A stretch of DNA of 64,000 nt from Kiritimatiellia bacterium (GTDB lineage: Bacteria; Verrucomicrobiota; Kiritimatiellia; RFP12; UBA1067): positions 1,355-65,354 of the forward strand of contig JAQUCE010000011.1 of the NCBI GenBank assembly GCA_028686345.1, written 5' to 3'. Below are positions 2,802-43,190 of the stretch, one piece after another. Below the pieces are notes generated by a model. That model did no database searches. It was given only the letters and a program-made list of their open reading frames with translations, and had not been told where the DNA came from. Positions within the stretch are counted from its first letter, which is position 1. Every line of letters begins with the position of its first letter. The position numbers and the translations under genes were made by a program.

Positions 2802-3329
2802 GTAAGCTTTTCCCTCTCTGTTCTCTTATATTAACAACAGCATGATTTAGTTTACTGATCTCTACCGTATTCGACATCCCAGCAATGTACCAAGAGCACG
2901 CCGTCGATTGTGACTTCATCAATACAGATCTCGACTTCCTCTTCATCATAGTCAAAATAGATGTCGTCGCATTAAAGCCATGTCATCTTTGACAGCGTCA
3001 CATCGGAAAGTGTTTGCCCACAGGCTGAGTATGTCTTGCAGCAAATTGTTTCTCCTGTTTAAAAGATGTATAGATAATCTACTGTTTTGATGATTATGTC
3101 AATTGTTTTGATGCGGTAATTGTTGTCGGGCGCGAAGGATCGCCATAGTTTGCGACGTAAAAGCTGCGTGCCATAAAATGCTGGCCAAGGCTTGCCGTAT
3201 ATTGGTATTGTAGCTTGAACTTTAGCGAAGTCGGAACTAGGGGTCATTTTATGCGCTTCTTGATGCCGATTCCGATAGCGAGTTATAAGCAAAGGAAAAA
3301 ATCCGGTTGACGATAGCGGCGACGATGCT

Positions 3330-3900
3330 GGTGGACGATTTCCCGCGTGATCCCAACCGTCCACCAACATCGTCGCACAACATGGTCGGTCGTGTTATGA
3401 TTTAGTTCGTGAAAGGCGCGCCATGGGATTTCATGATCTTTGATTGGCTCTGAGAGCCAACCCTACAGTTTCAACTTGAGTTAAGCTTGCAAGTCGCACG
3501 ACATGCGGAAGTGCGTGAGCAACGTAGGTCCGATTTCCAATCGGACATCGCCGGTTGCCAACCATATCACTGGACATAGGGGGTCAAAACGATTGCACTT
3601 TAATTTTCGAAACCACAAGGAACCTAGCGCAACATAGCCGCCTGTCTGCGTGCAACGCACAGGCAGGCAACCAATTTTTTGCCACTGAGACACTGAGGGG
3701 CACAGAGGGTACGCTGGTTATTTTTTAGGTAGAAAAACAGAGGGGTAGAAAAATGGAGAGCGTAATAATTTTTTGCCCGCGAATTAGAGTGCGTGCCCTG
3801 CTGATCACTCGCGTGCCACCCGCCGCCGCCCGCATAGCGAACGACTGCCTGCTCCGCACCTTGCGGAGCAAAGTCAACGCGATACAAAAAAAGCGCATCA
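3330..3900. repeat. Composite intergenic repeat, copy A, inverted relative to the copy at 7250-7900
   Basis: Segments read in the window: ...gtggacgat..cgcgtgatcccaa.cgtccaccaacatcgtcgc (3340-3395), ccatgggatttcatgatctttg (reverse complement of 7436-7457), cactggacatagggggtcaaaacgattgcactttaattttcgaaaccacaaggaacctagcgcaacatagccgc (also 20715-20772 and 30633-30690 inverted), gccgcccgcatagcgaacgac. Confidence 0.5.
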
Positions 3901-3927: not shown

Positions 3928-4002
3928 TGGCTCCGGCGACTGGATTCGAACCAGTGACCAAGTGGTTAACAGCCACCTACTCTACCGCTGAGCTACGCCG
4001 GA
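3928..4002 (-). tRNA. tRNA-Asn (anticodon GTT), 75 nt including 3' CCA
   Basis: Reverse complement reads TCCGGCGTAGCTCAGCGGTAGAGTAGGTGGCTGTTAACCACTTGGTCACTGGTTCGAATCCAGTCGCCGGAGCCA. This gives a 7-bp acceptor stem, D arm, anticodon loop CTGTTAA, T-loop TTCGAATCC and a CCA end. The 135-aa plus-strand ORF 3918..4325 over it is spurious. Confidence 0.85.
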
Positions 4003-4112: not shown

Positions 4113-6053
4113 TCAATAATACGGCATCCCGTGCCGGGTGCGCATCAGCTCCGGGCGGATCTCCTTGATAAACCGGGAGACATCGCAGGGCATGACTCCT
4201 CCATCGTACAAACGGCGCATGCGGGGCGACATCAAAACCAGCTCATTCTGTGCGCGGGTGACCGCCACATAAAACAGCCGCCGCTCTTCACGGTCATCTT
4301 CACAGTCGCCAATTGCCCGGGCTGAGGGAAACATCCCCTCCACCACCCAGATAACAAAGACCACCGGCCACTCCAGCCCCTTGGCTTGGTGAATTGTGCT
4401 CAGGTGAATCTTGTCCTCACTGCTGCGCGCGTTTTTATCAAACTGGTGATCCACATTGGTCAGCAACGCCACCTCTTGCAAAAAATCCTCCAACTTGGGC
4501 GCACTCGCAATCTGCACGGTCAGCTCTTCAATATCCTCCCCGCGCTTATCAGCATTTTCATAGGTAAGGTTGAGATACTCCGTGTAAAAGGCGTCGCAAA
4601 AGCCCTCAATGGCTGCGCGTCCTTGCTCAGCCAGACCCTGATCATAGATTTGCGTCAGAAATGCGTCGATCGGCGCCCACTGCCGGAGAGCGGCAGGGCG
4701 CAGATTTTTCATGAGAGTCGCGCGCTGGACAGGATCTCCCAACTGGAACGAGTGCCCTAGTTTTTCCCACAGCCGCTCGGATGTTTTCGTACCGACCCCG
4801 CTCAACAGACAAAGCAGGCGCGTGAAAGCGATGAAATCCCGCTGATTAACAATCAACTGCAGCAGGGCCAGGACATCCTTGATATGCGCCTGTTCAAAAA
4901 CACTGATGCCCGAGGTGATGGAGTAGGGAATCCCGTTGCGTCCCAGGGTCAGTTGCAGCTCAATGGAATGAAAGTGGGCGCGGTAGAGTACCACCATATC
5001 GCGCAGCTTATAGCCGTCGTCCTGATAGCGGTGAATCATTGAGAGCACCCCTCCGGCCTGCTCATTGCCATCACGCAGGAAGAAAACCTGCGGCTTATTT
5101 TTTGAGGCGCGCGTGGGCCGCAGCGTTTTTTGAAATTGATCGGGGTTGCCCTTGATGCTCTCATTGGCCACACTCAAAATCTCAGGCACACTGCGGTAAT
5201 TCTGCTCCAACTTCACTATGGCGCAACCAGGCCAGCGGTTTGGAAAATTCATGATGTTTTTAAAGTCAGCGCCGCGCCAGGAGTAGATGCACTGAAAATC
5301 ATCGCCGACTGCCATCACATTCTTATAACCAGCGGCCAGAATATCGACGATCTTGGCTTGCAGCCGGTTGGTGTCCTGATACTCATCCACCAGCACATGT
5401 TGAAACTGCTGCTGATAAAGGGCGCGCACATCCGCGCACTCGGTCAACAGGCGCAGTCCATTCACCAGCAGATCATCAAAATCCATGACCTCCATCTCGC
5501 GCTTGCGTTGGATATAGAGCTTGACCACCTCCACGGCCTCGCCTCTCAAATCAACGGGTAACGCGGCAGCTGCCTCAACCACCTCTTCAATCTCCGCCTC
5601 GGAGTTGGCTGCCTCGCTGATCCATCCGCCGACCACATCCTTTTTCGGAAACTCCTTCACATCCTTGACGCACTCTTTGATACAGCTGTCGATCAAGGTG
5701 CGCGAGTCATCCTGATCCAGGATTCGGAACCAAGGTTTATAGCCCAGCTTGTGGCAGAAGCGACGTAAAAAGCGGTTACAGATATGGTGGAAGGTGCCGC
5801 TCCAAAGAGCGCCCACATTGCCGCCAGCTATTGCACGCGCGCGCTCAATCATCTCGTTGGCAGCGCGATTGGTGAAGGTCAGCAACAGGATATTCTCAGG
5901 ATCCACCCCCCGCTCCATGAGATAGGCAACCCGGTAAACCAGCGTGCGGGTCTTGCCTGTGCCAGCCGCGGCCAGCACCAGCAAGGGGCCGTCTTTGGCG
6001 GTCGCCGCCTCACACTGCTCCGCGTTTAAAAGTTCTGCATAGTCAATCATCAA
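4113..6053 (-). CDS. Superfamily-1 ATP-dependent DNA helicase, UvrD/Rep/PcrA family
   Basis: 646 aa. Walker A AAAGTGKT, LLLTFTNRAA, VDEYQDTN, and a C-terminal UvrD-like helicase region (QAKGLEWPVVFV). Confidence 0.85.
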   Translation of the reverse strand: MMIDYAELLNAEQCEAATAKDGPLLVLAAAGTGKTRTLVYRVAYLMERGVDPENILLLTFTNRAANEMIERARAIAGGNVGALWSGTFHHICNRFLRRFCHKLGYKPWFRILDQDDSRTLIDSCIKECVKDVKEFPKKDVVGGWISEAANSEAEIEEVVEAAAALPVDLRGEAVEVVKLYIQRKREMEVMDFDDLLVNGLRLLTECADVRALYQQQFQHVLVDEYQDTNRLQAKIVDILAAGYKNVMAVGDDFQCIYSWRGADFKNIMNFPNRWPGCAIVKLEQNYRSVPEILSVANESIKGNPDQFQKTLRPTRASKNKPQVFFLRDGNEQAGGVLSMIHRYQDDGYKLRDMVVLYRAHFHSIELQLTLGRNGIPYSITSGISVFEQAHIKDVLALLQLIVNQRDFIAFTRLLCLLSGVGTKTSERLWEKLGHSFQLGDPVQRATLMKNLRPAALRQWAPIDAFLTQIYDQGLAEQGRAAIEGFCDAFYTEYLNLTYENADKRGEDIEELTVQIASAPKLEDFLQEVALLTNVDHQFDKNARSSEDKIHLSTIHQAKGLEWPVVFVIWVVEGMFPSARAIGDCEDDREERRLFYVAVTRAQNELVLMSPRMRRLYDGGVMPCDVSRFIKEIRPELMRTRHGMPYY

Positions 6054-6158
6054 TATTTTTCCAATCTGCTGTCAGGCATTGAACGTACAGCTCACTCCGC
6101 TTGTGCCGTCAAAAGCGTAACAAGGATAGCATGACAGCTGAACTTAGTGAATGCCGAA

Positions 6159-7094
6159 TTACCGCAAATTAAAGATAATGGTCAGGCCGGCGGAAGATTC
6201 GACCGGCTTGGAGCCGATCTTTCCAGCTGCGAACTGCGCCTTTTGCACAGCCTGTTTGGCTGCCTGGTCCAACTCCGGAAATCCGCTGGATTTTGTGATC
6301 TCCACCCTCAGCGCCTCGCCCTCCACGCTGATGCGAACACTGAGGGTCACGGCACCCTCTTCCCCGCGCCGGCGGGCGCCGGCCGGATACACAGGTTTAA
6401 TGGTTTTGCGTGGCCGGGGGGGCACATCAATCCGGGCTGAGGCCGCGCCGCTCTCCGGAGTATCCGATGCCAGTATCTCGGGCACTGGCGCGCGCGGCAG
6501 AGGGCGCTGTTCCGGGGTTTCTGCGATATCTGCCTGGCCCCTCTCCGCTGCTACCTCATGGTTTGGCTGAGCCTTCTCCGGGGCTGGTTTAGGCTCTGGT
6601 TTAGGTTCAAGCTTAGGTGCGGGCTCAGGTGCAGGCTTGGGCTCTGGCGGCGGCTCTGGCGGCGGAATTGGTTCTGGCTCGGGCTCGGGCTCGGGCATTG
6701 GCGGCGGCAGCTCGGGTAACGGTTCGGGCTGCGGCAGCTCAGGCGGCAGCTCAGGCGGCAGCTCAGGTAACGGTTCGGGCGGCGGCAGCTCGGGTGGCGG
6801 CGGCACTACCGGAGGCTCCGGCGTCGGCTTCTCCGGTTCCGGTTTTACCTCGGGTTCCGGTTTAGCTTCAGGCTCCGGGTTCTCTGGTTCAGGAGACGCG
6901 GGGATGTGCTGCGGTGGCGGAGATGGCCGGGAAGCTTGATCAGCGTTTGAGAGGTTTAGCTCAACTGCGCTCACCTCCAACTCCGCCAAGGTGATTATAG
7001 TCGGCGAAGTCGTCTGATTGGCGATCATCAGTATGCCGATTACATGCAGCAGAAGGGTCAGTATAAAAAATGGTGTGTGGTTGGCGAAAAACAT
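6159..7094 (-). CDS. TonB-family energy transducer (N-terminal TM anchor, Pro/Glu-rich spacer with PEPEP/PELPPELP tandem repeats, TonB C-terminal domain)
   Basis: 311 aa. N-terminal hydrophobic helix, about 130 residues of PE/PK-rich repeats, and a C-terminus VYPAGARRRGEEGAVTLSVRISVEGEA...ITKSSGFPELDQAA typical of TonB_C. Confidence 0.7.
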   Translation of the reverse strand: MFFANHTPFFILTLLLHVIGILMIANQTTSPTIITLAELEVSAVELNLSNADQASRPSPPPQHIPASPEPENPEPEAKPEPEVKPEPEKPTPEPPVVPPPPELPPPEPLPELPPELPPELPQPEPLPELPPPMPEPEPEPEPIPPPEPPPEPKPAPEPAPKLEPKPEPKPAPEKAQPNHEVAAERGQADIAETPEQRPLPRAPVPEILASDTPESGAASARIDVPPRPRKTIKPVYPAGARRRGEEGAVTLSVRISVEGEALRVEITKSSGFPELDQAAKQAVQKAQFAAGKIGSKPVESSAGLTIIFNLR

Positions 7095-7249
7095 AGTGCT
7101 ACGTTAATTTTCGTGTTTTTGTACATGTGTGGTCTCTAAAAACATGTTGTCAATGGGCCAATCCTAATCTTTATCGCATGTAATTCGCTGTAGTCGAATT
7201 ATCACTAGGCCCTTGCGGGATGGAAAGAACAATTAATTGTTCTTTCCAC

Positions 7250-7900
7250 AAAGTTGTCTATCGGGTGACAGCTCATAGCCTCTGGCGTATTCGCATCTGC
7301 CGCATGACCTTCAAACTTCACTCAGTTGAAAATGCAGGGTTGGCGGAACTTGTCCGGCGTAGTTCCGCCATGCAACTGCATAGCCCCGCTTGCGGGCGAA
7401 GCCGGGTTGCGGAACGAAGACGGATGAGCCAAACAAAGATTATGAAATCCCATGGCAAGCCTTTGACGACCAATCGCCCGGCATCCGCTAATTGCTTCAT
7501 CCTCCTTCGCCAAGGCTACGGCGGACACGATGGAAGCAACACTACACCCCGGGGCGCGCCTTTCATGAGACTGTTGCAAAATGCCGCTGGTAGAGCGGCT
7601 ACTACGCTGAACGACAACCCTTGCACTCCGCAGTGCAGCGCGTTTGTAGTAGTCGCTCTGCCAGCGACATCGGTTGACGACGATGTTGACCGACGATTGG
7701 GATCATGCGGGGGCTCGTCCACCAGCATCGTCGCCGCTATCGTAAACCGAAGACGCGGCTGACCATACTGCGTGACTTGATCAATCGCATGCCGCCCGCA
7801 GTCGCCCGCATAGCGGACGACTTCCTTGACCCGCGCCTTGGTTTCCAACCGCTAATTTCTCAGCCAGGACGACGACCTTCCGCACGCCACACAAACTCTT
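7250..7900. repeat. Composite intergenic repeat, copy B, between tonB and the pseudopilin operon
   Basis: Modules shared with other intergenic gaps: cttgcgggcgaagccgggttgcgg...gatgagccaaacaaagattatgaaatcccatggc...gccgctggtagagcggct...aacccttgcactccgcagtgcagcgcg...gcgacgatgttgaccgacgattgggatcatgcg..gctcgtccaccagcatcgtcgc...gtcgcccgcatagcggacgacttcc. The same modules recur at 30690-31230, 23460-23700, 42950-43170 and 30205-30290, and inverted at 3330-3450. Confidence 0.55.
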
Positions 7901-7921
7901 TTGGTTGCCCGGCCAGCTGCT

Positions 7922-10900
7922 TTAGTTCTCAAGGTATTTGAAGTAAAGAACCTTCTGCTCAAAGTAGTCATTGGAGCGTCCCAGGCTATCAGGATCATCA
8001 TCATAGGGCTCCCTGGAGCGGTCATCAACTCCCCTATGATGCTGATACCAGGGAGAGATACGGGTGTTGGTTTTTGTTCCGTCATTATACATGTTGGACG
8101 GCTTCACCACCTTTCCAGCCTTATCAGTCTTGGGGTAGGGGTCGCGCCACACCAGAGCAATGGCCTTGCCGCCAGCCAAAGACTTGACCGAGTCGCCAAG
8201 TGAGGGGGCGGTCGCCTCAGCACTGATGATATAGAGAAAGAGCTGCTGACGATCAGAGAAAGAGTCAAGCGTAAAGGAGTAGAGCATCTTGCGATCAACC
8301 TCATGCAGCGCCTTGCTGAGGTTAACAGGTGTGCCTCCTGCTGGCGGCGGATTGGCGGCAGGATCAAGTACCTTATCCGGGTCAGTGGCAGAGTACCAGC
8401 CAAAGTAATTATTGGAGTTATACTCATCTTTGAGGCTTTTGGTGAGGTCGGTGTTGATAGCGGTTGCATTGCGGACATTCATCAGGCAATTAGCCCATCC
8501 ATTGGTGAAGTTTTTCCAGTCGCTACCCTCCATCAGTTTACTGAAGTTACCATCCCGGATTTTGGGCGGAACCGCATTGCCTTTCTCGACTGCATCTGTA
8601 ATCTGGTATGAGACCCAGTAATCCAGAGGAACACGTTCAACAGCAGCCCCCAGCACCAGCGGGATATCGGAGAGCGGGTTGACGCGCGCGCCGATTAACG
8701 AGCCATCCTCATTGGCTGCAATAAAATTCTGGTAGATCGCATCGTGCCGTCGCTTAATCTGATCGCCTGGATCGCCGTGATCATAGAGCCGGATAGTTCT
8801 GAACATGGCATCATAATCATGACATTTATCTGGATCCTTGTGCTCTCTGAAATCAACCACCGGGCCGGTAGGTTGATACGCGAACGGGCGGATAATATAG
8901 CCCAACTCGCCCGGTGACTGCATTTTACCGGCATTGGAAACCGACATAAAAACATCCGCATCCCGTCCGTCATTCAGTGCCAGAATGTCTCTGGTGGATT
9001 TATTCAACCTGCCATCCGCCTCCGGCACATCACTTTTGATCCAGTTACTGACCTTCCAGTTAAAACGCGGGTCCGGTGTTTCAAGGCATGTCCACGCATA
9101 AGTCAGGTCAATCGGAACCGCCATGTTTTTCCCCAGCGCGGGCGATGGAACACTCTGGAAAAAGATTTTTTGGCTTGCTTGAAACTCATCCGCCTCAGTG
9201 ATTCTGTTCGCGCCGGGGAACCTGATCATTGTCGGCACGCAATCGACATATTTGTTATTGGTATTGTTTTTAATCCGGACGTAACCCAGCACCAGCGAAA
9301 CACTGATCAGGCTATCCGCGGCAAATCCGTTGTAAGGGACGCCATCGCTGTCAATAAGATCAAGATTGGGGGTTCCGCCGGGAGTGTTAAAAATGGCAGT
9401 CAGGGGGATATTAACGACTCGGCAGGTCTGTTCCTGATCAATGATATTACTGTTCCACTGATTAGGCGCAGCTGCATTGCCTTTTAATTCTATCAGGTAG
9501 TCAGAGGCTGGACCAGGAGCCTGGCCGATAAAACTGCCTGAATTCTGATCTGCGTGCACCTTATTCACCTTGAGGTAAGCGAGCACCTCAACCGTGTAAC
9601 CCGGTGTACTGGTGCGCAGCGATGTGTTTTTAAAGGGCCACATCACTTCAACATTGATAAAGGTGGTTGGAAGAAGGCGGGTAAAATCCAGGGTGTAGAT
9701 TAAGATATCCTCATTATCAGCATTTTTAGCGGCACGTGTGGTTATAAACGCCTGCGCCAGAGGCGGAACCGAGATCTGGGAGATCATGGGAGCAAGCTCA
9801 ACCGACGGCATATTAAGCGCCTTGGGAACATCATCCTCATCAAGATAGTCGGCCAGCAGGGTCGGCAGAATATCATTGAAGCTTCGGGTAACATCCACCC
9901 CTGCGCTGACATTGTCTTTCAAGGCCTCCTTCAAAGTGGCGCCGAAAGTTCCCTGAAACTCCACATCTTTATCAGGCTGAAGAGTGGTCAGATAGGCATC
10001 CGAAACAGGGGGATGGGTCAGGATGTTATGGGGCTCAGGGTTTTTCACTGGCTCGGCCATCGCCACGCCATCTGTGATTAAGATCTGCTTTGAAGCGTTT
10101 CGAAACGGTTCATAATCATAACCTGTGTTAAGGTAATCATGCCAAGGGCTGCGGAAAAGGGTGCTGTCCGCCATCTCAAACATACAGGAGTAAAAATCCT
10201 GCAGGGTTGTGTAGTTGATATCACTCTCTTTGACCCGCTTGTCAAATGCCTTTCTCTGGGCATCATCCCTAAAGAGGTGGCCTATACTGACCCGGTTTTC
10301 CGCGCCATCGCGCACCTCGGCCTTACAGTAGTTGACATTCAGCATATCCGAAACATTGATGCAGATATACGCGTAGCGCCCGATCACCGCCTCTTCATAA
10401 GCATTCAACCCCTCCATTGTGATCAGCGGCATGCTGAGCGGCCGCCACTTGGCACCGAGGTGCCCCATGCCGGCATTCGGAGCGCCGGCTGGCCGCGGCA
10501 GCGCGTAGTAGCGCACATCATTGAGCAGAATGCCGGGGATATAGGCGAGCGCGCCCAGGGTCAGCACGCGCGCGTTAGCACTGTTGTCAGCACTGTTGAC
10601 CACCGCCGAGGTACGGACGCGTCCGGGCCAGGTCGGAAATTTACGTGGATTGGGAGCACCGGCGATCGTTGTGGCGCGCAGATCGCTATCGACCTCATCC
10701 ATGGCGCGGTAGAGGGCCGCGTTCAGCATATGGCGGGCACTGGCAGCGTGGCGGTAGTTAGAGGAGGCCTGGCGTTCGATACGCATATAGATGGCGAACG
10801 CTACTGCACTGATCATCATAAAACTCAAAAAACCGAGTACAATCAAGAGTGCGGAGCCGCGTTGACCCCGGCCTGGTAAAGGATTTGTGTTGTTTCTCAT
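7922..10900 (-). CDS. Giant GspK-like minor pseudopilin (992 aa), last gene of the T2SS/type-IV-pilus-like operon
   Basis: N-terminus ...RGQRGSALLIVLGFLSFMMISAVAFAIY matches the GspK leader consensus (RGxALLxVL..). It is about 3 times longer than a canonical GspK, and the rest has no domain I can name. Confidence 0.6.
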   Translation of the reverse strand: MRNNTNPLPGRGQRGSALLIVLGFLSFMMISAVAFAIYMRIERQASSNYRHAASARHMLNAALYRAMDEVDSDLRATTIAGAPNPRKFPTWPGRVRTSAVVNSADNSANARVLTLGALAYIPGILLNDVRYYALPRPAGAPNAGMGHLGAKWRPLSMPLITMEGLNAYEEAVIGRYAYICINVSDMLNVNYCKAEVRDGAENRVSIGHLFRDDAQRKAFDKRVKESDINYTTLQDFYSCMFEMADSTLFRSPWHDYLNTGYDYEPFRNASKQILITDGVAMAEPVKNPEPHNILTHPPVSDAYLTTLQPDKDVEFQGTFGATLKEALKDNVSAGVDVTRSFNDILPTLLADYLDEDDVPKALNMPSVELAPMISQISVPPLAQAFITTRAAKNADNEDILIYTLDFTRLLPTTFINVEVMWPFKNTSLRTSTPGYTVEVLAYLKVNKVHADQNSGSFIGQAPGPASDYLIELKGNAAAPNQWNSNIIDQEQTCRVVNIPLTAIFNTPGGTPNLDLIDSDGVPYNGFAADSLISVSLVLGYVRIKNNTNNKYVDCVPTMIRFPGANRITEADEFQASQKIFFQSVPSPALGKNMAVPIDLTYAWTCLETPDPRFNWKVSNWIKSDVPEADGRLNKSTRDILALNDGRDADVFMSVSNAGKMQSPGELGYIIRPFAYQPTGPVVDFREHKDPDKCHDYDAMFRTIRLYDHGDPGDQIKRRHDAIYQNFIAANEDGSLIGARVNPLSDIPLVLGAAVERVPLDYWVSYQITDAVEKGNAVPPKIRDGNFSKLMEGSDWKNFTNGWANCLMNVRNATAINTDLTKSLKDEYNSNNYFGWYSATDPDKVLDPAANPPPAGGTPVNLSKALHEVDRKMLYSFTLDSFSDRQQLFLYIISAEATAPSLGDSVKSLAGGKAIALVWRDPYPKTDKAGKVVKPSNMYNDGTKTNTRISPWYQHHRGVDDRSREPYDDDPDSLGRSNDYFEQKVLYFKYLEN

Positions 10901-11441: not shown

Positions 11442-12098
11442 TCACTCCGCCCAGGTGCGGATATCATCCTTGGTGCCCCAGACACCGTCGGGTCCGGCTG
11501 AGGCGGCGCCAATCTCCAGGTTATACCCCAGTGATTCGACTTTGGCTTTCAGGCGCACTGATAAAGGCAGCCCATCCGTGGGGTTTGTGCCGAACTCAGC
11601 CTCAAAACTCTGCAGGTCAGTGGTCGGTGTGTTCTGACTGCCGCTGCTCTCAAAAAACTTCTTAACATCTGAAGTAATCGTCTCTTTACCGCCTCGGGCG
11701 AGCAGGATGGTCTCAATTCTTTTTCCCTCTGTATTATACTGAATAAAAGAGAGGCTGCGGCGGGCGGAGTTACCAAAATCATCCCCTTCAAAACCGCTGG
11801 ATGAAAGAGTATAAAACCTGAGTTCACTGCCTTTAAAACTCTGCGAGCCGGGGAGTTGATCACGCAGCTCCTTTGGGATGGAGCGCGCATCAACAGCCTT
11901 GGCCGCATCGCGCTGGATCGAGCCGATCAGCGAGCGGATCTGCATAAAGGCATCCGCCCGCCGCACGCCGGTGCGCCAGGCCATGCTGGTCTGTTGAAAG
12001 AGCATGGCCAGCATCATCACAATCACCACCAGGATCGAGGATGCAACAAGCACCTCAATCATGGAAAATCCCGCGTTTTTATTGGTTCTGTAGTTCAT
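11442..12098 (-). CDS. Minor pseudopilin (GspJ/PulJ-like), prepilin-type N-terminal cleavage/methylation domain
   Basis: MNYRTNKNAG|FSMIEVLVASSILVVIVMMLA leader plus hydrophobic helix. Confidence 0.6.
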   Translation of the reverse strand: MNYRTNKNAGFSMIEVLVASSILVVIVMMLAMLFQQTSMAWRTGVRRADAFMQIRSLIGSIQRDAAKAVDARSIPKELRDQLPGSQSFKGSELRFYTLSSSGFEGDDFGNSARRSLSFIQYNTEGKRIETILLARGGKETITSDVKKFFESSGSQNTPTTDLQSFEAEFGTNPTDGLPLSVRLKAKVESLGYNLEIGAASAGPDGVWGTKDDIRTWAE

Positions 12099-12142
12099 GG
12101 TCGCTTTTCACCCTCAAGTGTTGATGCGCATCAGGGGCGCTG

Positions 12143-12667
12143 TTACGGCGTGCCCTGGAACATCGCCTCCGCATAGTAGATCGGGTTGTTGGAGTATTGG
12201 TTATAGTTGTTCAAATTTTTCAGCTCGGTTGACTGCACCATAATGCCCATAATCCGACCAGAGAAGCCGGGCACAATCGTGCAGACAACCCGGTAGCGTC
12301 CGCCCAGCTTGGGCGCATCGCTCCAATCGGTCTCTTTAATTTGGCTCCCCATAAACCCTGGCCACACGTTACCGGAATTGCCTTTGACAGAGTCAGCCTT
12401 GGGAACCTGGGCGGACCATTGAGCCCAGGTGATATTGGTCTGCGAGGCAGCGGCCACGGCCTGGTTGAGCACGTAATCGGCCAGCATGCTCTGCTTTAGA
12501 TCAGCCTGTCCCTGAGTACTCTCACGCAGACCAAGGGGATAGAGCACTACCATGCTGAGAATGCCGACTGACATGACAAAGACCGCCATGTTGACCTCCA
12601 TCAGGGAGAAGGCTGCCCGTTGCTCTTTTTTCTTGCATAATTTCATACGATCACCACTTGCTGTCAT
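12143..12667 (-). CDS. Minor pseudopilin (GspI-like), prepilin-type N-terminal domain
   Basis: ...KEQRAAFSLMEVNMAVFVMSVGILSMVVLYP. The track ORF starts with GTG at 12694; ATG starts at 12667 or 12646 are more likely. The start is uncertain. Confidence 0.5.
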   Translation of the reverse strand: MTASGDRMKLCKKKEQRAAFSLMEVNMAVFVMSVGILSMVVLYPLGLRESTQGQADLKQSMLADYVLNQAVAAASQTNITWAQWSAQVPKADSVKGNSGNVWPGFMGSQIKETDWSDAPKLGGRYRVVCTIVPGFSGRIMGIMVQSTELKNLNNYNQYSNNPIYYAEAMFQGTP

Positions 12668-13496
12668 ACTCGACTTTACCCTCTTTTGTGACACGAACAG
12701 TTGTGCTTTTATATGGAGGAGAGGTTTCAGCGATTGCGATTGTAACCCTTTTCAGTGCGCGGCCATCCGGCAGGAAGGTGAGCACCTGAATCCTTTTCTC
12801 ATCCTCCTTCAGATCTTTAAACTCGAATAATTTCGGCAGAGTCTGAACAGGCGCGGCTTCAACCCCGTACGAATCGCCAACGCGCCAAACATCCCCGCCA
12901 GCCCGGACAGGCACATTGCGGTTGATCTCAAAACACCAGGCATTGATCACATCCTCTTTGGGCCCTGTGCGGGGTTTATACGCTGACTGCCGCCCGGAAA
13001 TCATATCCTTTGAGCTGACCACCCATGGATAGACAAAGGAGAAGCCGCCCTCAGTGTTGGTCAGATTGTACAGACGGAAGCCGCCTTTATAGCTTGAGGC
13101 GTTCTCCAACGCAACAGTGCTGAACATGGTGTCCAGCGAGTTGAACTCGTCAATCAGGTATTGGTTGCCCGGCGGTATAAACGAGATCTTGCCGACCTCT
13201 TTACAAACAACATAGGAGGGGATCACCGCCTTCTTGCTGCCGCCGAGATCCGCGTCAACAATGCCGCTGACCTCATTGTAAAGCACCACACTAACGCGCG
13301 CGTTGTCCATGCAGGCGCGCTGCCTGGCCAGTGTCAGAGTGTTGGCCAGATGCTTGACAGCACCACGCCGCGCCATGCCGCGTGCCGCGCCAAAATAACT
13401 GGTGACCGCCAGGGTGGTCAGCAGCCCCATGATCGACAGCACTGCCAGCAACTCCAGCAAAGAAAAGCCAAACTCGGTTTTTTTTCTCGCACCCAT
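12651..13496 (-). CDS. Minor pseudopilin (GspH-like), prepilin-type N-terminal domain
   Basis: MGARKKTEFG|FSLLELLAVLSIMGLLTTLAV. The internal ATG at 13496 was chosen. Confidence 0.6.
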   Translation of the reverse strand: MGARKKTEFGFSLLELLAVLSIMGLLTTLAVTSYFGAARGMARRGAVKHLANTLTLARQRACMDNARVSVVLYNEVSGIVDADLGGSKKAVIPSYVVCKEVGKISFIPPGNQYLIDEFNSLDTMFSTVALENASSYKGGFRLYNLTNTEGGFSFVYPWVVSSKDMISGRQSAYKPRTGPKEDVINAWCFEINRNVPVRAGGDVWRVGDSYGVEAAPVQTLPKLFEFKDLKEDEKRIQVLTFLPDGRALKRVTIAIAETSPPYKSTTVRVTKEGKVEYDSKW

Positions 13497-13519
13497 ACTC
13501 TCTCTCACCCCCCTGCAAA

Positions 13520-14011
13520 TCATCGGGCCACCCTGACCGAATCAGTTGCCAGATTATACTCCACCGTGAAAAACTTGAACTCCCTGGTGTTGCGCGGGTC
13601 AGCGTAGCCCAGCGGCAGATCGGTCTTGCCCTGCTCCAATGCCTGCCTAACCGACATCCGGGAACCATCGACTCTGGTTAAAATCGCCGAAGGGTCGACA
13701 TAGTTGTTCTTGGACTTGAACATCTTCTTGAAAGCCTTCTGATTGTTCTCGCCTTCCACCTTGTAAAGTGTCTGTGAATTGCCAACCCTTTTCATATCAG
13801 AGAGCTCAAACGGCCACTCATTCTGCTGCGCCCGGTAGTTGTTGAGCGCCATCTGCAGACCGCTGACCATCGCGTCGACCCTCTTTTCGCGCATGGTGCG
13901 CATTGACCTCATCACCGCGCCGGTTGCCAAGGTGGTAATCATCGCCATCACCGCCACAACCACCAGCATCTCCACAATGGTAAAGCCTTTTCGATTATTT
14001 TTTTTATTCAT
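13520..14011 (-). CDS. Pseudopilin, GspG family (prepilin-type N-terminal cleavage/methylation)
   Basis: MNKKNNRKG|FTIVEMLVVVAVMAMITTLA, with an AGGAGA RBS 8 nt upstream of the ATG. Confidence 0.7.
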   Translation of the reverse strand: MNKKNNRKGFTIVEMLVVVAVMAMITTLATGAVMRSMRTMREKRVDAMVSGLQMALNNYRAQQNEWPFELSDMKRVGNSQTLYKVEGENNQKAFKKMFKSKNNYVDPSAILTRVDGSRMSVRQALEQGKTDLPLGYADPRNTREFKFFTVEYNLATDSVRVAR

Positions 14012-14270
14012 ACGTCTCCTTTGGTCTCGTACCTATAACTCGTTCACTTGGCCGCGGTTGCGTGACTATAACTCAGGGGCGGGGTCGGGGTCGAAAAGCG
14101 AAACAATCGACTTGGCGATATCACGACTTCACGACTTCCGATTTCCAGGCTGCCGAACTTCGAGTTATCTCCTCGTTTTTTCGCAGCGCGCTGCGCACCC
14201 GGTTTGCCGCCTGCCTTCGATGCCGATGCCGACTCCGATGTTCTCCGCCCCTAACCTCTAACCCCTGGCA

Positions 14271-14912
14271 CTACTGCTCTGATATCACCTGCGCGTGATT
14301 CCAGCTGATCAGATCATCGTAGGGATAGCGGTTCCTGGCCTTGGGGTTTCTGCTCTCAAAATCATCCTGTCCGTCAGGGCCGCGCGACCAGACAATAACA
14401 TTGGCGCGGATGGTCAGTCCTTTGGGCGAACCCTCTTTGGCATCAACATAGCCGTCATTGTCAATATCCAGCCGGAACTGGATTCTGCGATCCTCAATCT
14501 TCACTCCGTCAAATCCAACCTGGGCGGCGGTGGAGAGCGACGGGTTGCGCCGCAGAGCATCGCGCCCCCACTCATCGAGAAAGCCAAAGCGGTCAAGGCT
14601 GGTGCTGTTGAGGTTGCCAAGATCAACCTTAACGTCCAGCAGGTGGTTCTGCGCCAACACCTGGCAGACCTTCTCATCCATCTCCAGCGCGTTGATCATA
14701 GTCTGATGCCACCGCCGCTCCTTCTGCAAGTAGAGGTTCAAGGCTGTGTGGGCATCGCTCACCGCGCCCTGCGCTTTGGCGCGCTTGGCGCTTCTTTTCA
14801 AGTGGCCCACCGAGGTCATCATGGCAGCGGAGATCATACCGATTATGCCGATCACCACCAGCAACTCCACCAGCGTAAAGCCGCCCCGCCCGTTATTTTC
14901 AAATTTTTTCAT
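14271..14912 (-). CDS. Pseudopilin, GspG family
   Basis: MKKFENNGRGG|FTLVELLVVIGIIGMISAAMM, and C-terminal ...VIVWSRGPDGQDDF. The track ORF begins with TTG at 14939; the ATG at 14912 was used. Confidence 0.65.
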   Translation of the reverse strand: MKKFENNGRGGFTLVELLVVIGIIGMISAAMMTSVGHLKRSAKRAKAQGAVSDAHTALNLYLQKERRWHQTMINALEMDEKVCQVLAQNHLLDVKVDLGNLNSTSLDRFGFLDEWGRDALRRNPSLSTAAQVGFDGVKIEDRRIQFRLDIDNDGYVDAKEGSPKGLTIRANVIVWSRGPDGQDDFESRNPKARNRYPYDDLISWNHAQVISEQ

Positions 14913-14939
14913 ACTGTGAATCATCCTACTCGCCTTCAA

Positions 14940-15254
14940 TCCTGATCCCGACTCTGGCGGAGCACTTACCGCTTAAAACTTACCACTTACCGCTTAAAAC
15001 TCGCCTTCGATCCCGACCCCGACTCCGCTGGCCGCTGGCCACTGGCCGCTAGCCGCTGGCTGCCTTGTAGGGCGCGACTGCGAACGTGCAGTGCTTCGCA
15101 AGCCTCAGCTAGCAATCGTCTGGTCAGAAAAGCACCATCCCGAGGTCATGGCCCTCGGCTACAATGCTTCGCAAGCAACTTCCAACCTCCAACTTGCCGT
15201 CGATACCGACCCCGACCCCGAGTCGCACCAACCCCCTAAACCCTAAACCCCGGC
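14940..15254. repeat. Low-complexity spacer packed with short direct repeats and G/C-tract motifs between pseudopilin genes
   Basis: Segments read: cttaccgcttaaaact twice, gctggccgctggccactggccgctagccgctggc, tgcttcgcaagc twice, ccctaaaccctaaacccc. The motif cgccttcgatcccgaccccgactcc also occurs at 14215-14245 and 15197-15232, and the related ggggcggggtcggggtcg at 14084-14101. Confidence 0.5.
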
Positions 15255-16313
15255 CTAGCGGTCAAAGCCGACAATGTCATCCTTAGTCCACCCGGAGACC
15301 AGCTTCAGGTCGTCCGAGCTGAGCGACTCAAGCGGTATCCAAGGAGGGAAGGTATTTCCATCTGAGCCTGCTGACCAGATCCGGTAGCTCTGGTAGGGCG
15401 GGGCAGAGTAGTAGAAAAAGTCATTGCCCCAGCCATCCACAACCGTGGTGCAAAACAGAATGGTTTTTTGTCCATCTTTGGAGTACGCACCCCTGAATTG
15501 ATGAGAGCCGCCCATGGAGTCCTGCACATCTCCGCCGCCTTGAAGCACAGTGTTCATAATGGTCGGCGCATGACCGCTCAAAATGCCCTCAAGGTTGGGG
15601 AGCCACTTGGCGCACTCGCGCATCTCCAGCTCGCGCTGGCCTTTGAGCGCATTGCGCAGTTTGTCCTTGTTGCCAGCACCGATGCGTGAGCTCTTGTTAT
15701 GAAGCCCCCACTGTTTACTGTGATAAAACCCTTCGATCGGCTGATCCCTGCTAAAAGCACTGGTTTCCGGGGGAATCCCTACCAGCTCCACACGGGGCAG
15801 TAGAAAAGAGAGCAAGCCGAACTTGAACATCTTCACTTCCTCCCACATGGCATTTGGTATGGTTGCCGCATTGTTGTAAACTTCGTTCACGGTTCGAATC
15901 TGCTGATCGCGAAACTTCTCGTTGACAAACTCATCATAGGTCTGGGGATAGGGGTACTCAAAGGAGACCGGCTGAGCGCGCGCCGCCCAGCGCGCGGCAG
16001 CCGTTTTTTGACCGCCGCTCCAGGGGATTTTCTCGCCACCCTGCGCCCCGCGGTCATCCGAAGCGTTCATGGGATCCGGGTTGGCATACAACGGCACTGG
16101 AGGGTAGGTGCCGTAGGAGGAGTAAAACCCTGAGATCGCATTCTGCAACCGCTCCATACGCGCCTTGGTCTGGGCTGTTTTGGAGTTTTCAGAGACCGCG
16201 CTGAACAGCTTGAAGACTGATGCAATCAAGATGCCGATAATCACCAGCACCACCATCAGCTCCAGCAAGGTGAAAGCGCGCTTACTGTTAAATTTATTAA
16301 CCTTTGCACTCAT
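15255..16313 (-). CDS. gspG: Large GspG-family pseudopilin (352 aa)
   Basis: KRAFTLLELMVVLVIIGILIASVF, and C-terminal GspG signature DGWGNDFFYYSAPPYQSYRIWSAGSDGN. GGAGGA RBS. Confidence 0.7.
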   Translation of the reverse strand: MSAKVNKFNSKRAFTLLELMVVLVIIGILIASVFKLFSAVSENSKTAQTKARMERLQNAISGFYSSYGTYPPVPLYANPDPMNASDDRGAQGGEKIPWSGGQKTAAARWAARAQPVSFEYPYPQTYDEFVNEKFRDQQIRTVNEVYNNAATIPNAMWEEVKMFKFGLLSFLLPRVELVGIPPETSAFSRDQPIEGFYHSKQWGLHNKSSRIGAGNKDKLRNALKGQRELEMRECAKWLPNLEGILSGHAPTIMNTVLQGGGDVQDSMGGSHQFRGAYSKDGQKTILFCTTVVDGWGNDFFYYSAPPYQSYRIWSAGSDGNTFPPWIPLESLSSDDLKLVSGWTKDDIVGFDR

Positions 16314-16327
16314 AAATATCCTCCATG

Positions 16328-16346
16328 AGCAAGCAGGATGCTTGCT
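16328..16346. promoter_or_regulatory. 19-bp perfect palindrome AGCAAGCAGGATGCTTGCT immediately upstream of the RBS of the 352-aa gspG-like gene
   Basis: 8-bp arms with a 3-bp centre. Related copies at 23749-23767 and 30088-30106. Confidence 0.35.
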
Positions 16347-16481
16347 CTACTTCAAACTTGATTTCTCCAAACGCGCAGCGTTTGTGACTAAAGCAGCGGG
16401 CCCATAACCATGAACTTTTCAGTGAGAGCGAATGCCGTCCGCACATCGCTCAGCCGCATTTGGTTTCCGCAGCTAGCTGCT

Positions 16482-17786
16482 TTAGCTCGATGATCCGAGT
16501 GTATTGATAATCTGAATCATAGGCATGAACATCGCGATCACAATCGTTCCGACCACCACAGCCAGCACAATGATCATCAGCGGCTCAATCACGGATGTCA
16601 AACCAGCGACAGCGTTGTCCACCTCATCGTCGTAGGTTTCCGCAACACGTCCAAGCATGTCAGGCAGCGCGCCGGTCTCCTCGCCCACCTCTACCATCGA
16701 GATCACCATCGGGGGGAAAACCTTACAGGCTGAGAGCGGCGTGGTCATGCTCTCACCCTCTTTGACGCTGTCGTGCACCGACTGAATCGCGCGGGAGATC
16801 ACCGCGTTACCGGTGGTGTCGCGCACAATTGTCAGCGCCTGCAGTACCGGAACACCCGAGGAGAGCAGAGTTCCCAAGGTGCGGGTCATGCGGGAAATCG
16901 CGGTTTTCCTGATCAATCCGCCGAAGAGCGGCATATTGATTTTGGCAACATCAAGGATATAAGAGCCGTTTTTTGTTTTGGCAAAGACTTTAAACAGCGT
17001 GACAAAGACCGCAATGCCAATCAGTACGACTATCCAGTTGGCAACCACCAGATTACTGGCGTCCATCACAAACTGTGTGATCGCCGGCAGCGGCTGACCA
17101 GCCAGCAGATCATTAAAAATGTCGCTGAACTTAGGAATCACCGCGACCAGCAAGAACCCGGTGATACCCACCGCGGCGATCAGCACCACAACCGGATAAA
17201 CCATGGCGCCCTTGACCTTGTTCTTGATCTTCTCCGCTTTTTCCGCGAATTCGGCGAGACGGTTGAGCACCACCTCCAGCACACCGCCAGCCTCACCGGC
17301 ACGCACCATGTTGATGTAGAGATTGTCGAAAATTTTGGGGTAGTTGGCGAGCGACTCGGAGAAGGTGCTGCCGCTCTCAACCGCCTCACCCATGCCGCCC
17401 AACGCATCACGCAGGGTCGGATGAGCGGTCTGGCGCTTGAGCACGTTTAATCCACGCAGCAACGGCAGACCCGCGTCCACCAGCGTGGCGAGCTGCCGGG
17501 TCAACACTGTCAGGTCTTTTTGCTTTACCCTGGGCCGCAGAAATTTCGGCATCTTAAACTCAATGTTGGTCTTGCCTAAGCTCTTCTTTTTGGCACCCCC
17601 GGCGGCTGCTCTGGGCGCGGCTTTCTTAGCCGCTGTGCCGCTTCCGCCACCAGCCTCGCCGATCGCGGTTGGAAACAACCCCATGCCGCGGACAGCCGCA
17701 ACGGCCTGCGCCTGGGTCGCGGCTTCCACCGTGCCGCGGCTCTCTTTACCTGTCGAATCTTTAGCAATATACGCAAACTTGGGCAT
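16482..17786 (-). CDS. gspF: Type II secretion / type IV pilus inner-membrane platform protein (GspF/PilC family)
   Basis: MPKFAYIAKDSTGKESRGTVEAATQAQAVAAVRGMGLFP is a typical PilC/GspF N-terminus. Two GspF domains and a polytopic membrane region. The start was trimmed from 17846 to the internal ATG at 17786 (GGAG RBS). Confidence 0.8.
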   Translation of the reverse strand: MPKFAYIAKDSTGKESRGTVEAATQAQAVAAVRGMGLFPTAIGEAGGGSGTAAKKAAPRAAAGGAKKKSLGKTNIEFKMPKFLRPRVKQKDLTVLTRQLATLVDAGLPLLRGLNVLKRQTAHPTLRDALGGMGEAVESGSTFSESLANYPKIFDNLYINMVRAGEAGGVLEVVLNRLAEFAEKAEKIKNKVKGAMVYPVVVLIAAVGITGFLLVAVIPKFSDIFNDLLAGQPLPAITQFVMDASNLVVANWIVVLIGIAVFVTLFKVFAKTKNGSYILDVAKINMPLFGGLIRKTAISRMTRTLGTLLSSGVPVLQALTIVRDTTGNAVISRAIQSVHDSVKEGESMTTPLSACKVFPPMVISMVEVGEETGALPDMLGRVAETYDDEVDNAVAGLTSVIEPLMIIVLAVVVGTIVIAMFMPMIQIINTLGSSS

Positions 17787-20670: not shown

Positions 20671-20689
20671 GGGGCGCGGTTTTGCGGTT

Positions 20690-29741: not shown

Positions 29742-29749
29742 TTTCAGTG

Positions 29750-31245
29750 CACAGCTAAAGCAGCTAGTCGGGCCACCAAAAGAATTTGTGTGGTGTGCGG
29801 AAAGTCCTCGCTCTCATTCAGAAGTTTGTGATTGAGAGCCCGCTGCTACAGTAACAAACGCTGCGCGGTTGGGGAAACGAAGACAAATTTTCAAGAACCA
29901 ATCAGAGAACAAAGAGCACGCTTCCGGCTCCGAGCTTCGCTTTTACGCCGTGACAGGGAAGCGTGAACAACAAACGGCTGCTACGTAAGGTTTGTTGTTC
30001 AGCCTTTCCGTGTCCGGCGTAAAAGCGAAGCGCGAAGACGGAAGGCTGCTCCAAAGCGGATTATTGAGACGTTACTGTAAAAGTGATAATGGAGTAGTGC
30101 AAGCATCTTGCTTGCAGAAAACATTTTCATTCAAGCTATAGGTGTTTAGGCTGTAGGGGTTTAGGGTTCCTAATCACAATCCTAATCGTAATCCTCGTCT
30201 CTTTCGGCAGACGATGCTGTGCGACGATGTTGACCGACGATTGGGATCATGCGTGGGCTCGTCCACCAACATCGTCGGCACTATCGTCAACCAAAGGCGA
30301 AGCCGATATCCAGTAGGTCCGGTTTCCAACCGGACATCTTTGATTGAAAATCGGAGCTACGTTTTTGCGGCTATTACTTCTCTCTTTTACTGCGCTATAT
30401 TTAGCCGCAAAAAAGCGCAAAAGGCGCAAAATCTTCCCCAACCTTTTTTAACTACGAAACACACGGAAAACACGAAAGGGGGTACGCTTTGTAGGGGTTT
30501 CTCACAGAGGCTCAGAGAACACAGAGCGCAAAGTATGTTACTCTGAGAACTCTGCATGGCACGCCGTAGCCTTGGCGTAGGAGGGTGCCTCTGTGAGAGA
30601 TAAAAAAATTGGTTGCGGCTATGCTGCGCTAGGTTCCTTGTGGTTTCAAAAATTAAAGTGCAACCATTTTGACCCCCTATGTCCAGTGATCTGTCATTCG
30701 CGTGTCGCCCGCATAGCGGACGACTTCCTCCTCCGCGTCTTGTCAAATGGAGTAGGCGCGGAAGGAGGTCAGTCGCTATGCGGCTGACTATACCGCGCAC
30801 CTGATGGCTCGAATGTCACCCGCAGTCGCCCACGACTTCCTTGCTTCGCGCCTACCGTGCAACCTGCAAGCTTCATGACAGTGGAAACGTGTAGGGTTGG
30901 CGGCCCTTGTCCGGCATAGTTCCGCCATGCCACGGCGTAGCCCCGCTTGCGGGCAAAGCCGGGTTGCGGGCAAAGCCGGGTTGCGGGACGACGACGGATG
31001 AGCCAAACAAAGATTATGAAACCCCATGGCGCGCCTTTGACGAACAAGCGCCGGGCATACGCTAATTGCTTCTGAGAAGCAACCCTACACCCCATGGCGC
31101 GCCTTTCACATGCCTGTGCAGTGCCGCTGGTAGAGCGGCTGCTACACCGAACGATAACCCTTGCATTCCGCAGTGCAGCGCATGTGCGGTAGTCGCTCTG
31201 CCAGTGACATTGGTTGGTCATAATAATTATCACTGTTTGACAGCC
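29750..31245. repeat. About 1.5-kb compound block of stacked intergenic repeat modules with no convincing coding gene
   Basis: It contains the 29915-30050 long imperfect palindrome (gcttcgcttttacgccg..gaacaacaaac / gtttgttgttc..cggcgtaaaagcgaagc), the TGCAAGCATCTTGCTTGCA palindrome (30088-30106), gcgacgatgttgaccgacgattgggatcatgcg..gctcgtccaccaacatcgtcg (30225-30285), ccagtaggtccggtttccaaccggacatc, the inverted copy of 20780-20950, the ctctgtgagagataaa..ggttgcggctatgctgcgctagg module, the inverted cactggacat...gcactttaa module, the tandem gcaaagccgggttgcggg pair, and the ccgctggtagagcggctgctacaccgaacga module. All ORFs here are inside multi-copy DNA. Confidence 0.6.
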
Positions 31246-42939: not shown

Positions 42940-43190
42940 CCACACTTTAGCCTGCCTTTGACGAACAACCATCCGGTGTCCGCAATTGCTTCATCCTCCT
43001 TCGCCAAGGCTACGGCGGACACGGTAGAAGCAACACTACACCCCGGGGCGCGCCTTTCACGAGCCTGCGGCAAAATGCCGCTCGTAGCGCGGCAGCGGGT
43101 GACGATGGTGTGCGACGATGTTGACCGACGACTGATATCATGCGGAGCTCGTCCACCAGCAGCGTTGTTATTTGGCGTGTTCTAATTCGG
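42940..43190. repeat. Composite intergenic repeat, copy E
   Basis: ccgcaattgcttcatcctccttcgccaaggctacggcggacacggtagaagcaacactacaccccggggcgcgcctttcacgag...ccgctcgtagcgcggc...gtgcgacgatgttgaccgacgactgatatcatgcggagctcgtccaccagc. Near-identical to 7480-7740. Confidence 0.55.

Follow-up and report, generated by a model that had tools for sequence, protein, structure and literature searches.

Intergenic repeats of an uncultured Kiritimatiellae bacterium as a probable mosaic of GTAG-headed REP/REPIN-type elements and longer palindromes

Described REP systems and the repeats of the window

Repetitive extragenic palindromic (REP) sequences of the GTAG superfamily are known from many Proteobacteria and, within the Planctomycetes-Verrucomicrobia-Chlamydiae (PVC) group, from Opitutus terrae and Planctomycetes, and both their dimers and their insertion within palindromes have been described (PMC3733652). 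Here we analyze intergenic repeats, with the gap at 7250-7900 as the focal region, in a stretch of 64,000 nucleotides (nt) from an uncultured bacterium (contig JAQUCE010000011.1; the whole stretch is called the window). The region is probably a mosaic of REP/REPIN-type elements (REPINs being closely spaced inverted REP pairs) of at least eight GTAG families, combined with longer palindromes (M1, M7, J, R, and Q). Its closest counterparts are the GTAG REP/REPIN systems of Pseudomonas, Enterobacteriaceae, Stenotrophomonas, and O. terrae, with their REP-associated tyrosine transposases (RAYTs) (PMC3733652). The likeness lies in stem-loops with an unpaired 5' GTAG, extragenic location, multiple copies, several families per genome, short-spacer inverted dimers, a REP-flanked RAYT gene in the lineage, and contig breaks, whereas the window differs in that its sequences are new, its host phylum is Kiritimatiellota, and its REPs are unusually interleaved with longer palindromes lacking GTAG. 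The initial annotation, made from the letters of the window alone, chose the correct class in calling the repeats REP-like, since they are GTAG-headed stem-loops that are extragenic, multicopy, and arranged in inverted doublets; it held that they could not be assigned to a described element from sequence alone, whereas they can be placed in the GTAG-tagged REP superfamily (PMC3733652), with an organization like that of bacterial interspersed mosaic elements (BIMEs). GTAG REP/REPIN elements are a known class; the sequences reported here are new, and the class is not yet described in this phylum, our literature search having found no paper that mentions both Kiritimatiell- and extragenic palindromes.

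The BIMEs and the RIP and RIB elements of Escherichia coli likewise combine REPs with conserved non-REP spacers in a preferred order and orientation, and the unit REP5-M4-REP5b of the window, an inverted REP pair around a conserved spacer of ~60 nt, resembles a RIP element; unlike BIMEs, however, the window has many more REP families, true nesting in hairpin loops, and blocks of 0.7 to 1.5 kb. The insertion sequences (ISs) IS1397 and ISKpn1 insert into the palindromic units of BIMEs. In Anabaena, long palindromes harbor GTAG-15 dimers, and Halothiobacillus offers a case with CGTC-1 dimers (PMC3733652). What these cases have in common with the window is the apparent use of palindrome loops as landing sites and the coexistence of intact and interrupted copies, the differences being that the inserts of the window are themselves REP-like (31-100 nt) and not ISs and that two different host hairpins of one unit (REP5 and REP5b) are both occupied. 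The intergenic mosaics of Neisseria, in which dRS3/CGTC-1 repeats are interleaved with Correia and other elements (cited in PMC3733652), are comparable as large assemblies of several families, but their components belong to other classes than the window repeats, Correia elements being miniature inverted-repeat transposable elements (MITEs) with terminal inverted repeats and target-site duplications and dRS3 being phage integration sites, features of a kind not seen in the window modules. MITEs in general are, like the window repeats, small, noncoding, intergenic, and mobile, and a genuine example occurs in a relative (see below); in contrast, the composite and the main modules of the window lack terminal inverted repeats that match an IS end.

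Extent of the repeats and their REP hallmarks

Self-BLAST of the window at two sensitivities recovered matches at 3304-3863, 7221-7928, 20715-21128, 22376-22491, 23512-23682, 25209-25391 with 27002-27069, 29753-31216, and 42954-43165. All eight of the intergenic regions that the initial annotation had seen as assembled from common modules were thus recovered, with modules of 25 to 250 nt in varying combinations and orientations, and every module sequence that it quoted is present; smaller repeat pieces beyond its list lie at 16357-16488, 34118-34221, and 38743-38786. Repeats account for 4349 of the 8666 intergenic bases of the window (50%), all of them before 43.2 kb, and for some part of 13 of the 20 gaps of >=100 bp, so that the statement that almost every large gap is filled stands for the first two thirds of the window and fails beyond 43.2 kb, where there are no repeats. 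The M2-M6 chain at 7290-7676 is colinear with a second near-complete one on the plus strand at 30845..31216 (72% identity over 389 nt, with indels), 7459-7599 is 89% identical to 42954-43093, and the long hairpin module has five copies. These are short, intergenic-only modules rather than segmental duplications that carry genes. They were initially taken for one repeat family; what we find instead is at least eight GTAG-headed REP families and other palindromes, combined by nesting and preferred adjacency.

Copies are also present in other genomes. The single database relative of the open reading frame (ORF) at 7220-7762 led to contigs from a JGI metagenome of a municipal landfill (3300028602, Ga0265294) and from ENA, in which the same modules lie between quite different genes. 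A metagenome scan with a short REP1 hairpin (GTAGGTCCGRTTTCCAAYCGGAC) then gave at least 120 stretches, mostly from Ga0265294 and Ga0307990 and a few from other samples. The loci on related metagenome contigs collected through this REP1 match (these and other loci are designated by L and a number; ~1 Mb in all) contain every module of the window, with 43 copies of M1, 16 of M4, 16 of M6, and 38 of M7 at >=60% coverage over the window and loci, counts that are biased to REP1 by the way the loci were chosen. Two loci are orthologous to segments of the window at 79-89% nucleotide identity (L122 to 12070-17171 and L121 to 22516-23464). Loci with orthologues of the helicase gene from a further NCBI metagenome-assembled genome (MAG; L136) and from Ga0307990 (L137) carry GTAG hairpins, REP1-like ones included; neither locus remains syntenic past the helicase gene, and neither thus covers an orthologue of the gap at 7095-7921. 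REP1 and the M7 loop had no match in viral contigs (IMG/VR), and a genome scan with a 19-mer of M7 gave eight matches, none with any other similarity to the window, which we dismissed as chance.

Seven REP families of the window (REP1, 2, 4, 5, 5b, 6, and 7) have stems of 6-9 bp and loops of 3-7 nt; their sequences are GTAGGTCCGGTTTCCAACCGGAC (REP1), GTAGTGCAAGCATCTTGCTTGCA (REP2), GTAGCCCCGCTTGCGGGC (REP4), GTAGGGTTGGCTCTCAGAGCCAA (REP5), GTAGGGTTGCTTCTCAGAAGCAA (REP5b), GTAGTAGCCGCTCTACCAGCGGC (REP6), and GTAGCCTTGGCGAAGGAGG (REP7), and the loci add extra GTAG families (e.g., GTAGATCCCGATTTTATCGGGAT, GTAGCACAGGCGTCCCGCCTGTG, and GTAGGGCGGGGGCCGTGACCCCGCC). A GTAG followed by a hairpin occurs at 16 sites in the 8.6 kb of intergenic DNA of the window. 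Of all 4-mers that immediately precede perfect hairpins on their 5' side in 244 kb of intergenic DNA, GTAG shows the strongest enrichment (644 observed versus 20.5 expected, or 31-fold, part of which reflects the choice of loci through REP1); the enrichment is still 27-fold after a filter that took REP1 out in part only, and GTAG heads the most distinct stem/loop types (96). The elements are extragenic: whereas 76% of the bases lie in ORFs, 193 of the 200 REP1 copies and all 27 of REP6 fall outside long ORFs, and over the seven families the proportion is 96-100%, against 24% of bases. An inverted REP1 partner 1-2 nt away, the REPIN arrangement, accompanies 74 of 198 REP1 copies; in the window it is exemplified by the tail-to-tail doublet at 30312..30360 (+), which consists of GTAGGTCCGGTTTCCAACCGGAC, AT, and a degenerate inverted partner ending in CTAC. 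Shuffled patterns gave ~0 matches, against 5-200 real matches per REP family. The modules had also been described as mostly palindromic, and most of them do fold as single-stranded DNA beyond shuffled sequences (z-scores of -3 to -11: M1, -6.85; the hairpin at 7342-7369, -4.2; M6, -5.3; M8, -3.1; REP2, -3.5; J, -10.7), with weaker values for REP1 (-2.7) and the interrupted REP5b (-2.05); the exceptions are the window copies of REP4 (+0.44) and M7 (7672-7762, -0.4), which fold no better than shuffles.

Nesting, gain or loss of single elements, and the transposase

The focal region illustrates how these elements are combined. A REP5-type hairpin at 7334..7432 (+), whose head is degenerate (GCAG in place of GTAG), has its arms, GGGTTGGC (7337-7344) and GAGCCAA (7426-7432), separated by a loop block of ~80 nt (7345-7422); the nested block contains the REP3 hairpin (GGCGGAAC...GTTCCGCC, 7342..7369, +, five copies) and, after it, REP4 at 7380..7397 (+), a short GC hairpin of the form (A/G)TAGCCCCGCTTGCGGGC with a GTAG-type head that reads ATAG in this copy and GTAG in that at 30937 (12 copies, all outside ORFs). 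Intact REP5 (GTAGGGTTGGCTCTCAGAGCCAA) is found at 3466(-) and 22423(+), and a second interrupted copy, at 30893-31010, again holds a hairpin-containing block, the two blocks being 80-100 nt long. Past the conserved M4 spacer of ~60 nt (7433..7491, +), which separates inverted REP5 and REP5b hairpins, the REP5b hairpin at 7492..7545 (-; GTAGTGTTGCTTC...GAAGCAA on the minus strand) carries in its loop a nested unit of 34 nt, the REP7 unit at 7499..7532 (-; CGTGTCCGCCGTAGCCTTGGCGAAGGAGGAT on the minus strand, 12 copies). The REP5b loop is intact (TGA) at ~31070 and is filled by a REP7 unit of 31-34 nt also at 42985-43040 (insert 42993-43026) and in L010. Since one and the same hairpin is found both intact and interrupted, the blocks initially listed as module M3 and part of module M5 are inserts inside other REPs, and nesting of one REP-like unit in the loop of another generates much of the modularity of 7334-7545.

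Certain neighbors recur. REP5, the 60-nt M4 spacer, and the inverted REP5b form one unit, the succession M4-M5 occurring 16 times against a total of 18 M4 sites. For the 55 M7 sites there are 28 cases in which REP1 comes next with matching orientation, and M6 precedes M7 in 11. From what is known of the class, GTAG REPs would be mobilized in the form of hairpins of single-stranded DNA, which a RAYT (an HUH/Y1 tyrosine transposase), the product of one or a few genes at other places in the genome, would cleave and rejoin; palindromes already present would be favored landing sites, and segments bounded by two REPs could move as larger units, which would explain the super-modules M4-M5 and M7-REP1. 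Host-level effects, such as protection of mRNA 3' ends, intercistronic hairpins, and protein binding, would be secondary. A bolder version, which we regard as rather unlikely, is that of a self-nesting REP system in which RAYT/REP pairs target each other's loops, segments between two GTAG hairpins, of different families included, are mobile as units, and M7 is a distinct protein-binding site; it would yield multilevel "Russian-doll" mosaics of 0.7-1.5 kb built from the super-modules REP5-M4-REP5b and M7-REP1, with M7 serving a host or transposase-accessory protein rather than being a REP. The conservation of the M7 loop, together with the 13-mers of its arms, could point to a protein-binding role. 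The pairing of window families with RAYTs is a matter of inference, no RAYT having been found beside them.

Comparison of orthologous sites reveals differences by single small elements. A 48-nt REP1 doublet at 2984-3031 of L122 is absent at ~14152-14173 of the window, where the flanks abut. In the spacer between gspF and a pseudopilin gene, L122 has 97 nt of module J (824-920) between M9 and REP2, which the window joins directly (~16354; M9 then REP2, 16322..16488, -, the "empty" state for J), and the paralogous site at 29753-30118 has the full 250-nt J, giving three states of occupancy of the M9/J/REP2 junction. Module J itself (29885..30137) contains a 138-nt palindrome (29914-30051), ends in REP2 (GTAGTGCAAGCATCTTGCTTGCA, 30094-30116), and matches L010 over 207 nt at 89% identity. 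Among the relatives, L099 and L041 (91% identical) differ by a 160-bp element in L099 only (6122-6281; the L041 site is at ~3760), that has terminal inverted repeats of 20 bp (GGTAACYGTTAAGCTTAGAC), what looks like a 5-bp target duplication (ATTTT), and two GTAG hairpins in its interior, which makes it a true MITE-like element carrying REPs, and by one extra REP copy in L041; L010 and L011, near-identical contigs from two samples, differ by one 69-bp tandem unit that contains REP1. Such differences indicate insertion or excision. In L121, compared with the window at 23430-23470 (L121 ~8916), the conserved upstream sequence of the gene at 22510-23349 stops exactly where the repeats begin; past this point the module sets and the gene order differ, and the change of neighboring gene places the mosaic at a gene-order breakpoint.

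These data bear on the possibility, which we judge improbable, that the modules are deletion derivatives of one composite nonautonomous transposon of ~650-700 bp (a MITE or a palindrome-associated element of the IS200/IS605 type) with M1 and REP1 as its ends. The adjacency counts given above are high, the order M1-R-M2-M3-M4-M5-M6-M7-REP1 is colinear in many loci (e.g., L046, L054, L121, and L087), such chains recurring with members missing, and 7221-7928 of the window is a near-full chain. However, self-BLAST revealed no inverted match joining the two ends of either 7221-7928 or the M2-M6 chain; the composite thus lacks terminal inverted repeats, and the suggestion of a MITE made from the letters of the window does not apply to it. 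The units also occur singly and in both orientations, the intact and interrupted loops speak for stepwise nesting and not for deletion from a master copy, and the units that differ at orthologous sites are single small elements. From its sequence we also considered a likeness of M7 to integron attC sites and IS200/IS605 ends and rejected it in view of the lack of cassette organization, of matching core sites, and of a transposase nearby.

The enzyme expected of a REP/REPIN system is present in a relative. All ORFs of the window and the loci were screened with an E. coli RAYT sequence as a lead only, and candidates were then tested on curated models. A protein encoded on L100 passes the NCBIfam model REP_Tyr_transpos NF047646 (85.8 bits, cutoff 80) and Pfam Y1_Tnp PF01797; its gene, which lies between genes read from their translations as sufS-like and sufU-like, has arrays of its own hairpin (GGGAGCGCCGACGTCCTCGTCGGC) on both sides and in both orientations, the classic RAYT arrangement, and the same 115-kb contig carries REP1, M6, M7, and J. 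The lineage has the RAYT enzyme class. From this and from the class of the repeats we infer that RAYT-mediated transposition of single-stranded hairpins, into or beside palindromes already present, would have spread the elements of the window. About six copies of a 69-nt tandem unit with its own REP precede the RAYT gene (L100 3824-5131, -), so that the stop-to-stop ORF translates into a fusion of a repeated peptide (…SKADVSGLTDVHGSADVLVGIA…) with the transposase. Y1_Tnp proteins of L063 and L082 match the RAYT model below its cutoff, and the L082 gene adjoins a 3-kb gap packed with window modules; both were rejected as RAYTs of the window families, the L082 gene being flanked by an inverted hairpin of the GACGCTTCGCGTC type that has only ~3 copies and the L063 gene being without a flanking pair of window modules. 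The closest database homologue of the L100 RAYT (81%) comes from unrelated samples and lies inside a type I restriction-modification (R-M) operon (L132 5001-5762, also L133-L135; Logan runs SRR14597295-99), an unexpected setting for a RAYT-like gene. This operon encodes HsdR, a Bro-N protein, HsdS, Y1_Tnp, and HsdM (hsdR, hsdS, and hsdM) with overlapping start and stop codons, and a number of these homologues carry the JGI name "type I restriction enzyme R subunit/putative DNA methylase." A further homologue (76%), from Antarctic-lake-type samples, has leuS on one side and an ABC-F gene on the other.

Several points weigh against the reading as a REP/REPIN mosaic. The hairpin of the L100 RAYT is absent from the window, no RAYT flanked by a window REP family was found among the ORFs of the window and the loci, the flanks on L023 being covered by the map of modules and REPs, and the window has no Y1 transposase ORF. 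The bias of the loci to REP1 affects the copy numbers and part of the GTAG enrichment, and two-way comparisons cannot tell insertion from deletion at the polymorphic sites. A number of modules, namely, M1, M7, M8, D, H, I, S, and the heptamer-rich P, have no GTAG head and are only associated with REPs, and the M7 loop is better conserved than the M7 stem, which is unusual for a REP. Finally, the one variable stem pair of REP1 (G-C in 113 copies, A-T in 48, G-T in 4, and A-C in 2) speaks for preservation of the hairpin, but its covariation may reflect two inherited subfamilies rather than ongoing selection.

Alternative roles, genomic setting, and significance

The initial annotation also entertained a small-RNA family. 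That the repeats are structured RNAs selected at the RNA level (small RNAs, 3' untranslated region stabilizers, or attenuators) is in our estimate very unlikely. Strong hairpins would fit such a role, as would the position of M9, which abuts a gene 3' end at the stop codon in 7 of 10 copies (median distance, -3), that of REP2, which within the gsp operon closely precedes a ribosome-binding site, and the M7 hairpin (7677..7734, +), with consensus arms of 20 bp (7677-7696 and 7715-7734), a nearly invariant 14-nt loop (TTGGGATCATGCGG), and one U.G pair kept in 23 of 25 copies. Against it, Rfam at the gathering cutoff yields tRNA-Asn alone, and scans of 7100-7950 and 29700-31260 at E<=1 yield only chance matches to microRNA (miRNA) hairpins. 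The alignment of 25 M7 copies (83% column identity) has no compensatory change, its pairing (89.8%) equals that of shuffles (90.0%), and G.T (17) and A.C (18) mismatches are about equal, so that neither strand is favored; the alignment lends no support to a conserved RNA structure, and the pattern looks like that of a decaying DNA palindrome. Relative to genes the modules have no consistent polarity, occurring in both orientations (M9 excepted), and the numbers that fall into tandem, convergent, and divergent gaps match the lengths of these gaps, without preference for a gap type. In the focal region, terminator-like sites are not in excess (1 versus 1.0 in shuffles), and weak promoter-like matches number 2, versus 0.5 in shuffles.

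That the repeats are instead protein-binding sites recruited by the host (for nucleoid proteins, gyrase, IHF-like factors [IHF, integration host factor], or a regulator at M1) and spread by recombination seems highly improbable. M1 is a perfect AT-rich palindrome of 26-28 nt, often 26-160 nt from a gene start, and the M7 arms consist of three GACGAT-type iterons of 13 nt around the invariant loop; E. coli BIMEs, moreover, bind IHF and gyrase. Yet M1 lies equally close to 3' ends, ~20-40 copies per Mb sampled is high for a specific operator, and the presence/absence differences involve discrete small units.

An assembly or binning artefact, or degenerate protein-coding genes, might be suspected given that the source is a MAG and that long ORFs cross the repeats, but this is essentially refuted: besides the NCBI MAG, a Logan contig (run SRR11702755) provides an independent assembly of part of the window, the modules recur in assemblies of other samples at JGI and ENA, and the ORFs over the repeats, which had already been taken as noncoding, have no Pfam match, lie on opposite strands in homologous DNA (7290-7676 and 30845-31216), and in the case of 7220-7762 have, out of 5.8 billion proteins, a single relative, which is again an ORF over this repeat, from another metagenome.

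The remaining elements of the focal region complete the mosaic. M1 (7221..7263) comprises a 28-nt perfect palindrome at 7221-7248 with a GGAAAGAACAATTAATTGTTCTTTCC core and a 15-nt tail and lies 127 nt upstream of the start (7094) of a TonB-family gene; a further window copy is at 21095-21128. M6 (7583..7668) is a head-to-head REP6 dimer that folds as a single long hairpin, in which GTAGTAGCCGCTCTACCAGCGGC (7583-7605, -) and GTAGTAGTCGCTCTGCCAGCGAC (7646-7668, +) stand on either side of a 40-nt spacer, and recurs at 23512-23605 and 31117-31210. The copy of M7 at 7677 is degenerate, others lying at 3304-3392(-), 23619-23682, 30205-30306, and 43096-43165. The M8 hairpin (GTCGCCCGCATAGCGGACGAC, 7801..7821, +) has copies at 3802-3863 and 30704-30742, and a REP1 remnant (GGTTTCCAACCG, 7840..7851, +) matches the REP1 core in 12 of 12 positions, intact copies being at 3519-3549 and 30312-30360. 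M9 (7846..7928, -) begins at the stop codon of the gene at 7922-10900(-), is kept in the orthologue L122, and has paralogues at 16357-16488 and 29753-29882. Elsewhere, the mosaic beside tRNA-Asn (3304..3863) combines M7(-), an intact REP5 with its spacer (-), REP1, and modules D, S, and M8, and in that at 42954..43165 (+) M7 comes immediately after M4/M5 with its nested REP7. Modules I, Q, and S include stretches rich in CTCTGTG/CACAGAG and TTTTGCG (e.g., ctcacagaggctcagagaacacagag; 30480-30600, 3680-3700, and L082 5640-5680), and stretches of this type form palindromes of their own (25246-25327) without a GTAG head. Heptamer-type G-rich or C-rich runs (GGGTTTA, CCTAATC, GGGGTCG, and GGCTAGT) occur shortly past gene ends (30139-30200, 34118-34221, ~15180-15250, and 14012-14270); the two versions bracket a gene in some cases, and another heptamer takes their place in L122.

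The window is ordinary chromosomal DNA, encoding a UvrD/PcrA-type helicase, a TonB-family protein, a type II secretion/pilus operon, transporters, BNR/Laminin_G proteins, and a single tRNA-Asn (3928-4002, -). The helicase (4113-6053, -) is 100% identical to the NCBI protein [quoted passage not shown] from which the host is an uncultured member of the Kiritimatiellae (PVC group). Adjoining the tRNA-Asn and its repeat mosaic is a stretch of low GC content (72-2801, -; GC, 0.39-0.45) whose 909-aa protein matches the methyltransferase MAD2 of the methylation-associated defence system (E 1.6e-79, below cutoff) and which may be a horizontally acquired defence island. Two large genes, 52295-54603 and 58021-60314, are paralogous (~58% nucleotide identity over 1.5 kb); the first is annotated on L009 as a PKD/Laminin_G_3 protein, and the second lies outside L009. 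A tandem array with a period of 8 nt (GACGTTTGA/GCGTTTGA, 20580-20671) spans the 3' end of a glycosyltransferase-like gene (19524-20609) into the intergenic gap.

To our knowledge, REP/REPIN-RAYT systems have been studied almost only in Proteobacteria. The window offers a diversified system, with at least eight GTAG families and insertions nested in one another, from a PVC-group lineage that is uncultured and found in metagenomes of landfill and other origin. Such repeats break short-read assemblies, the independent Logan contig ending inside one of them (window position 43039), and they yield spurious ORFs of up to 180 aa that enter protein databases, which calls for caution in the assembly and gene calling of such MAGs. 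They also mark sites at which gene order differs between relatives, and their intact and interrupted hairpins, together with units present or absent between populations that are 80-90% identical, are material for studying how REP clusters grow. The finding overturns nothing known; its use is as an example of diversified and nested REPs from beyond the Proteobacteria.

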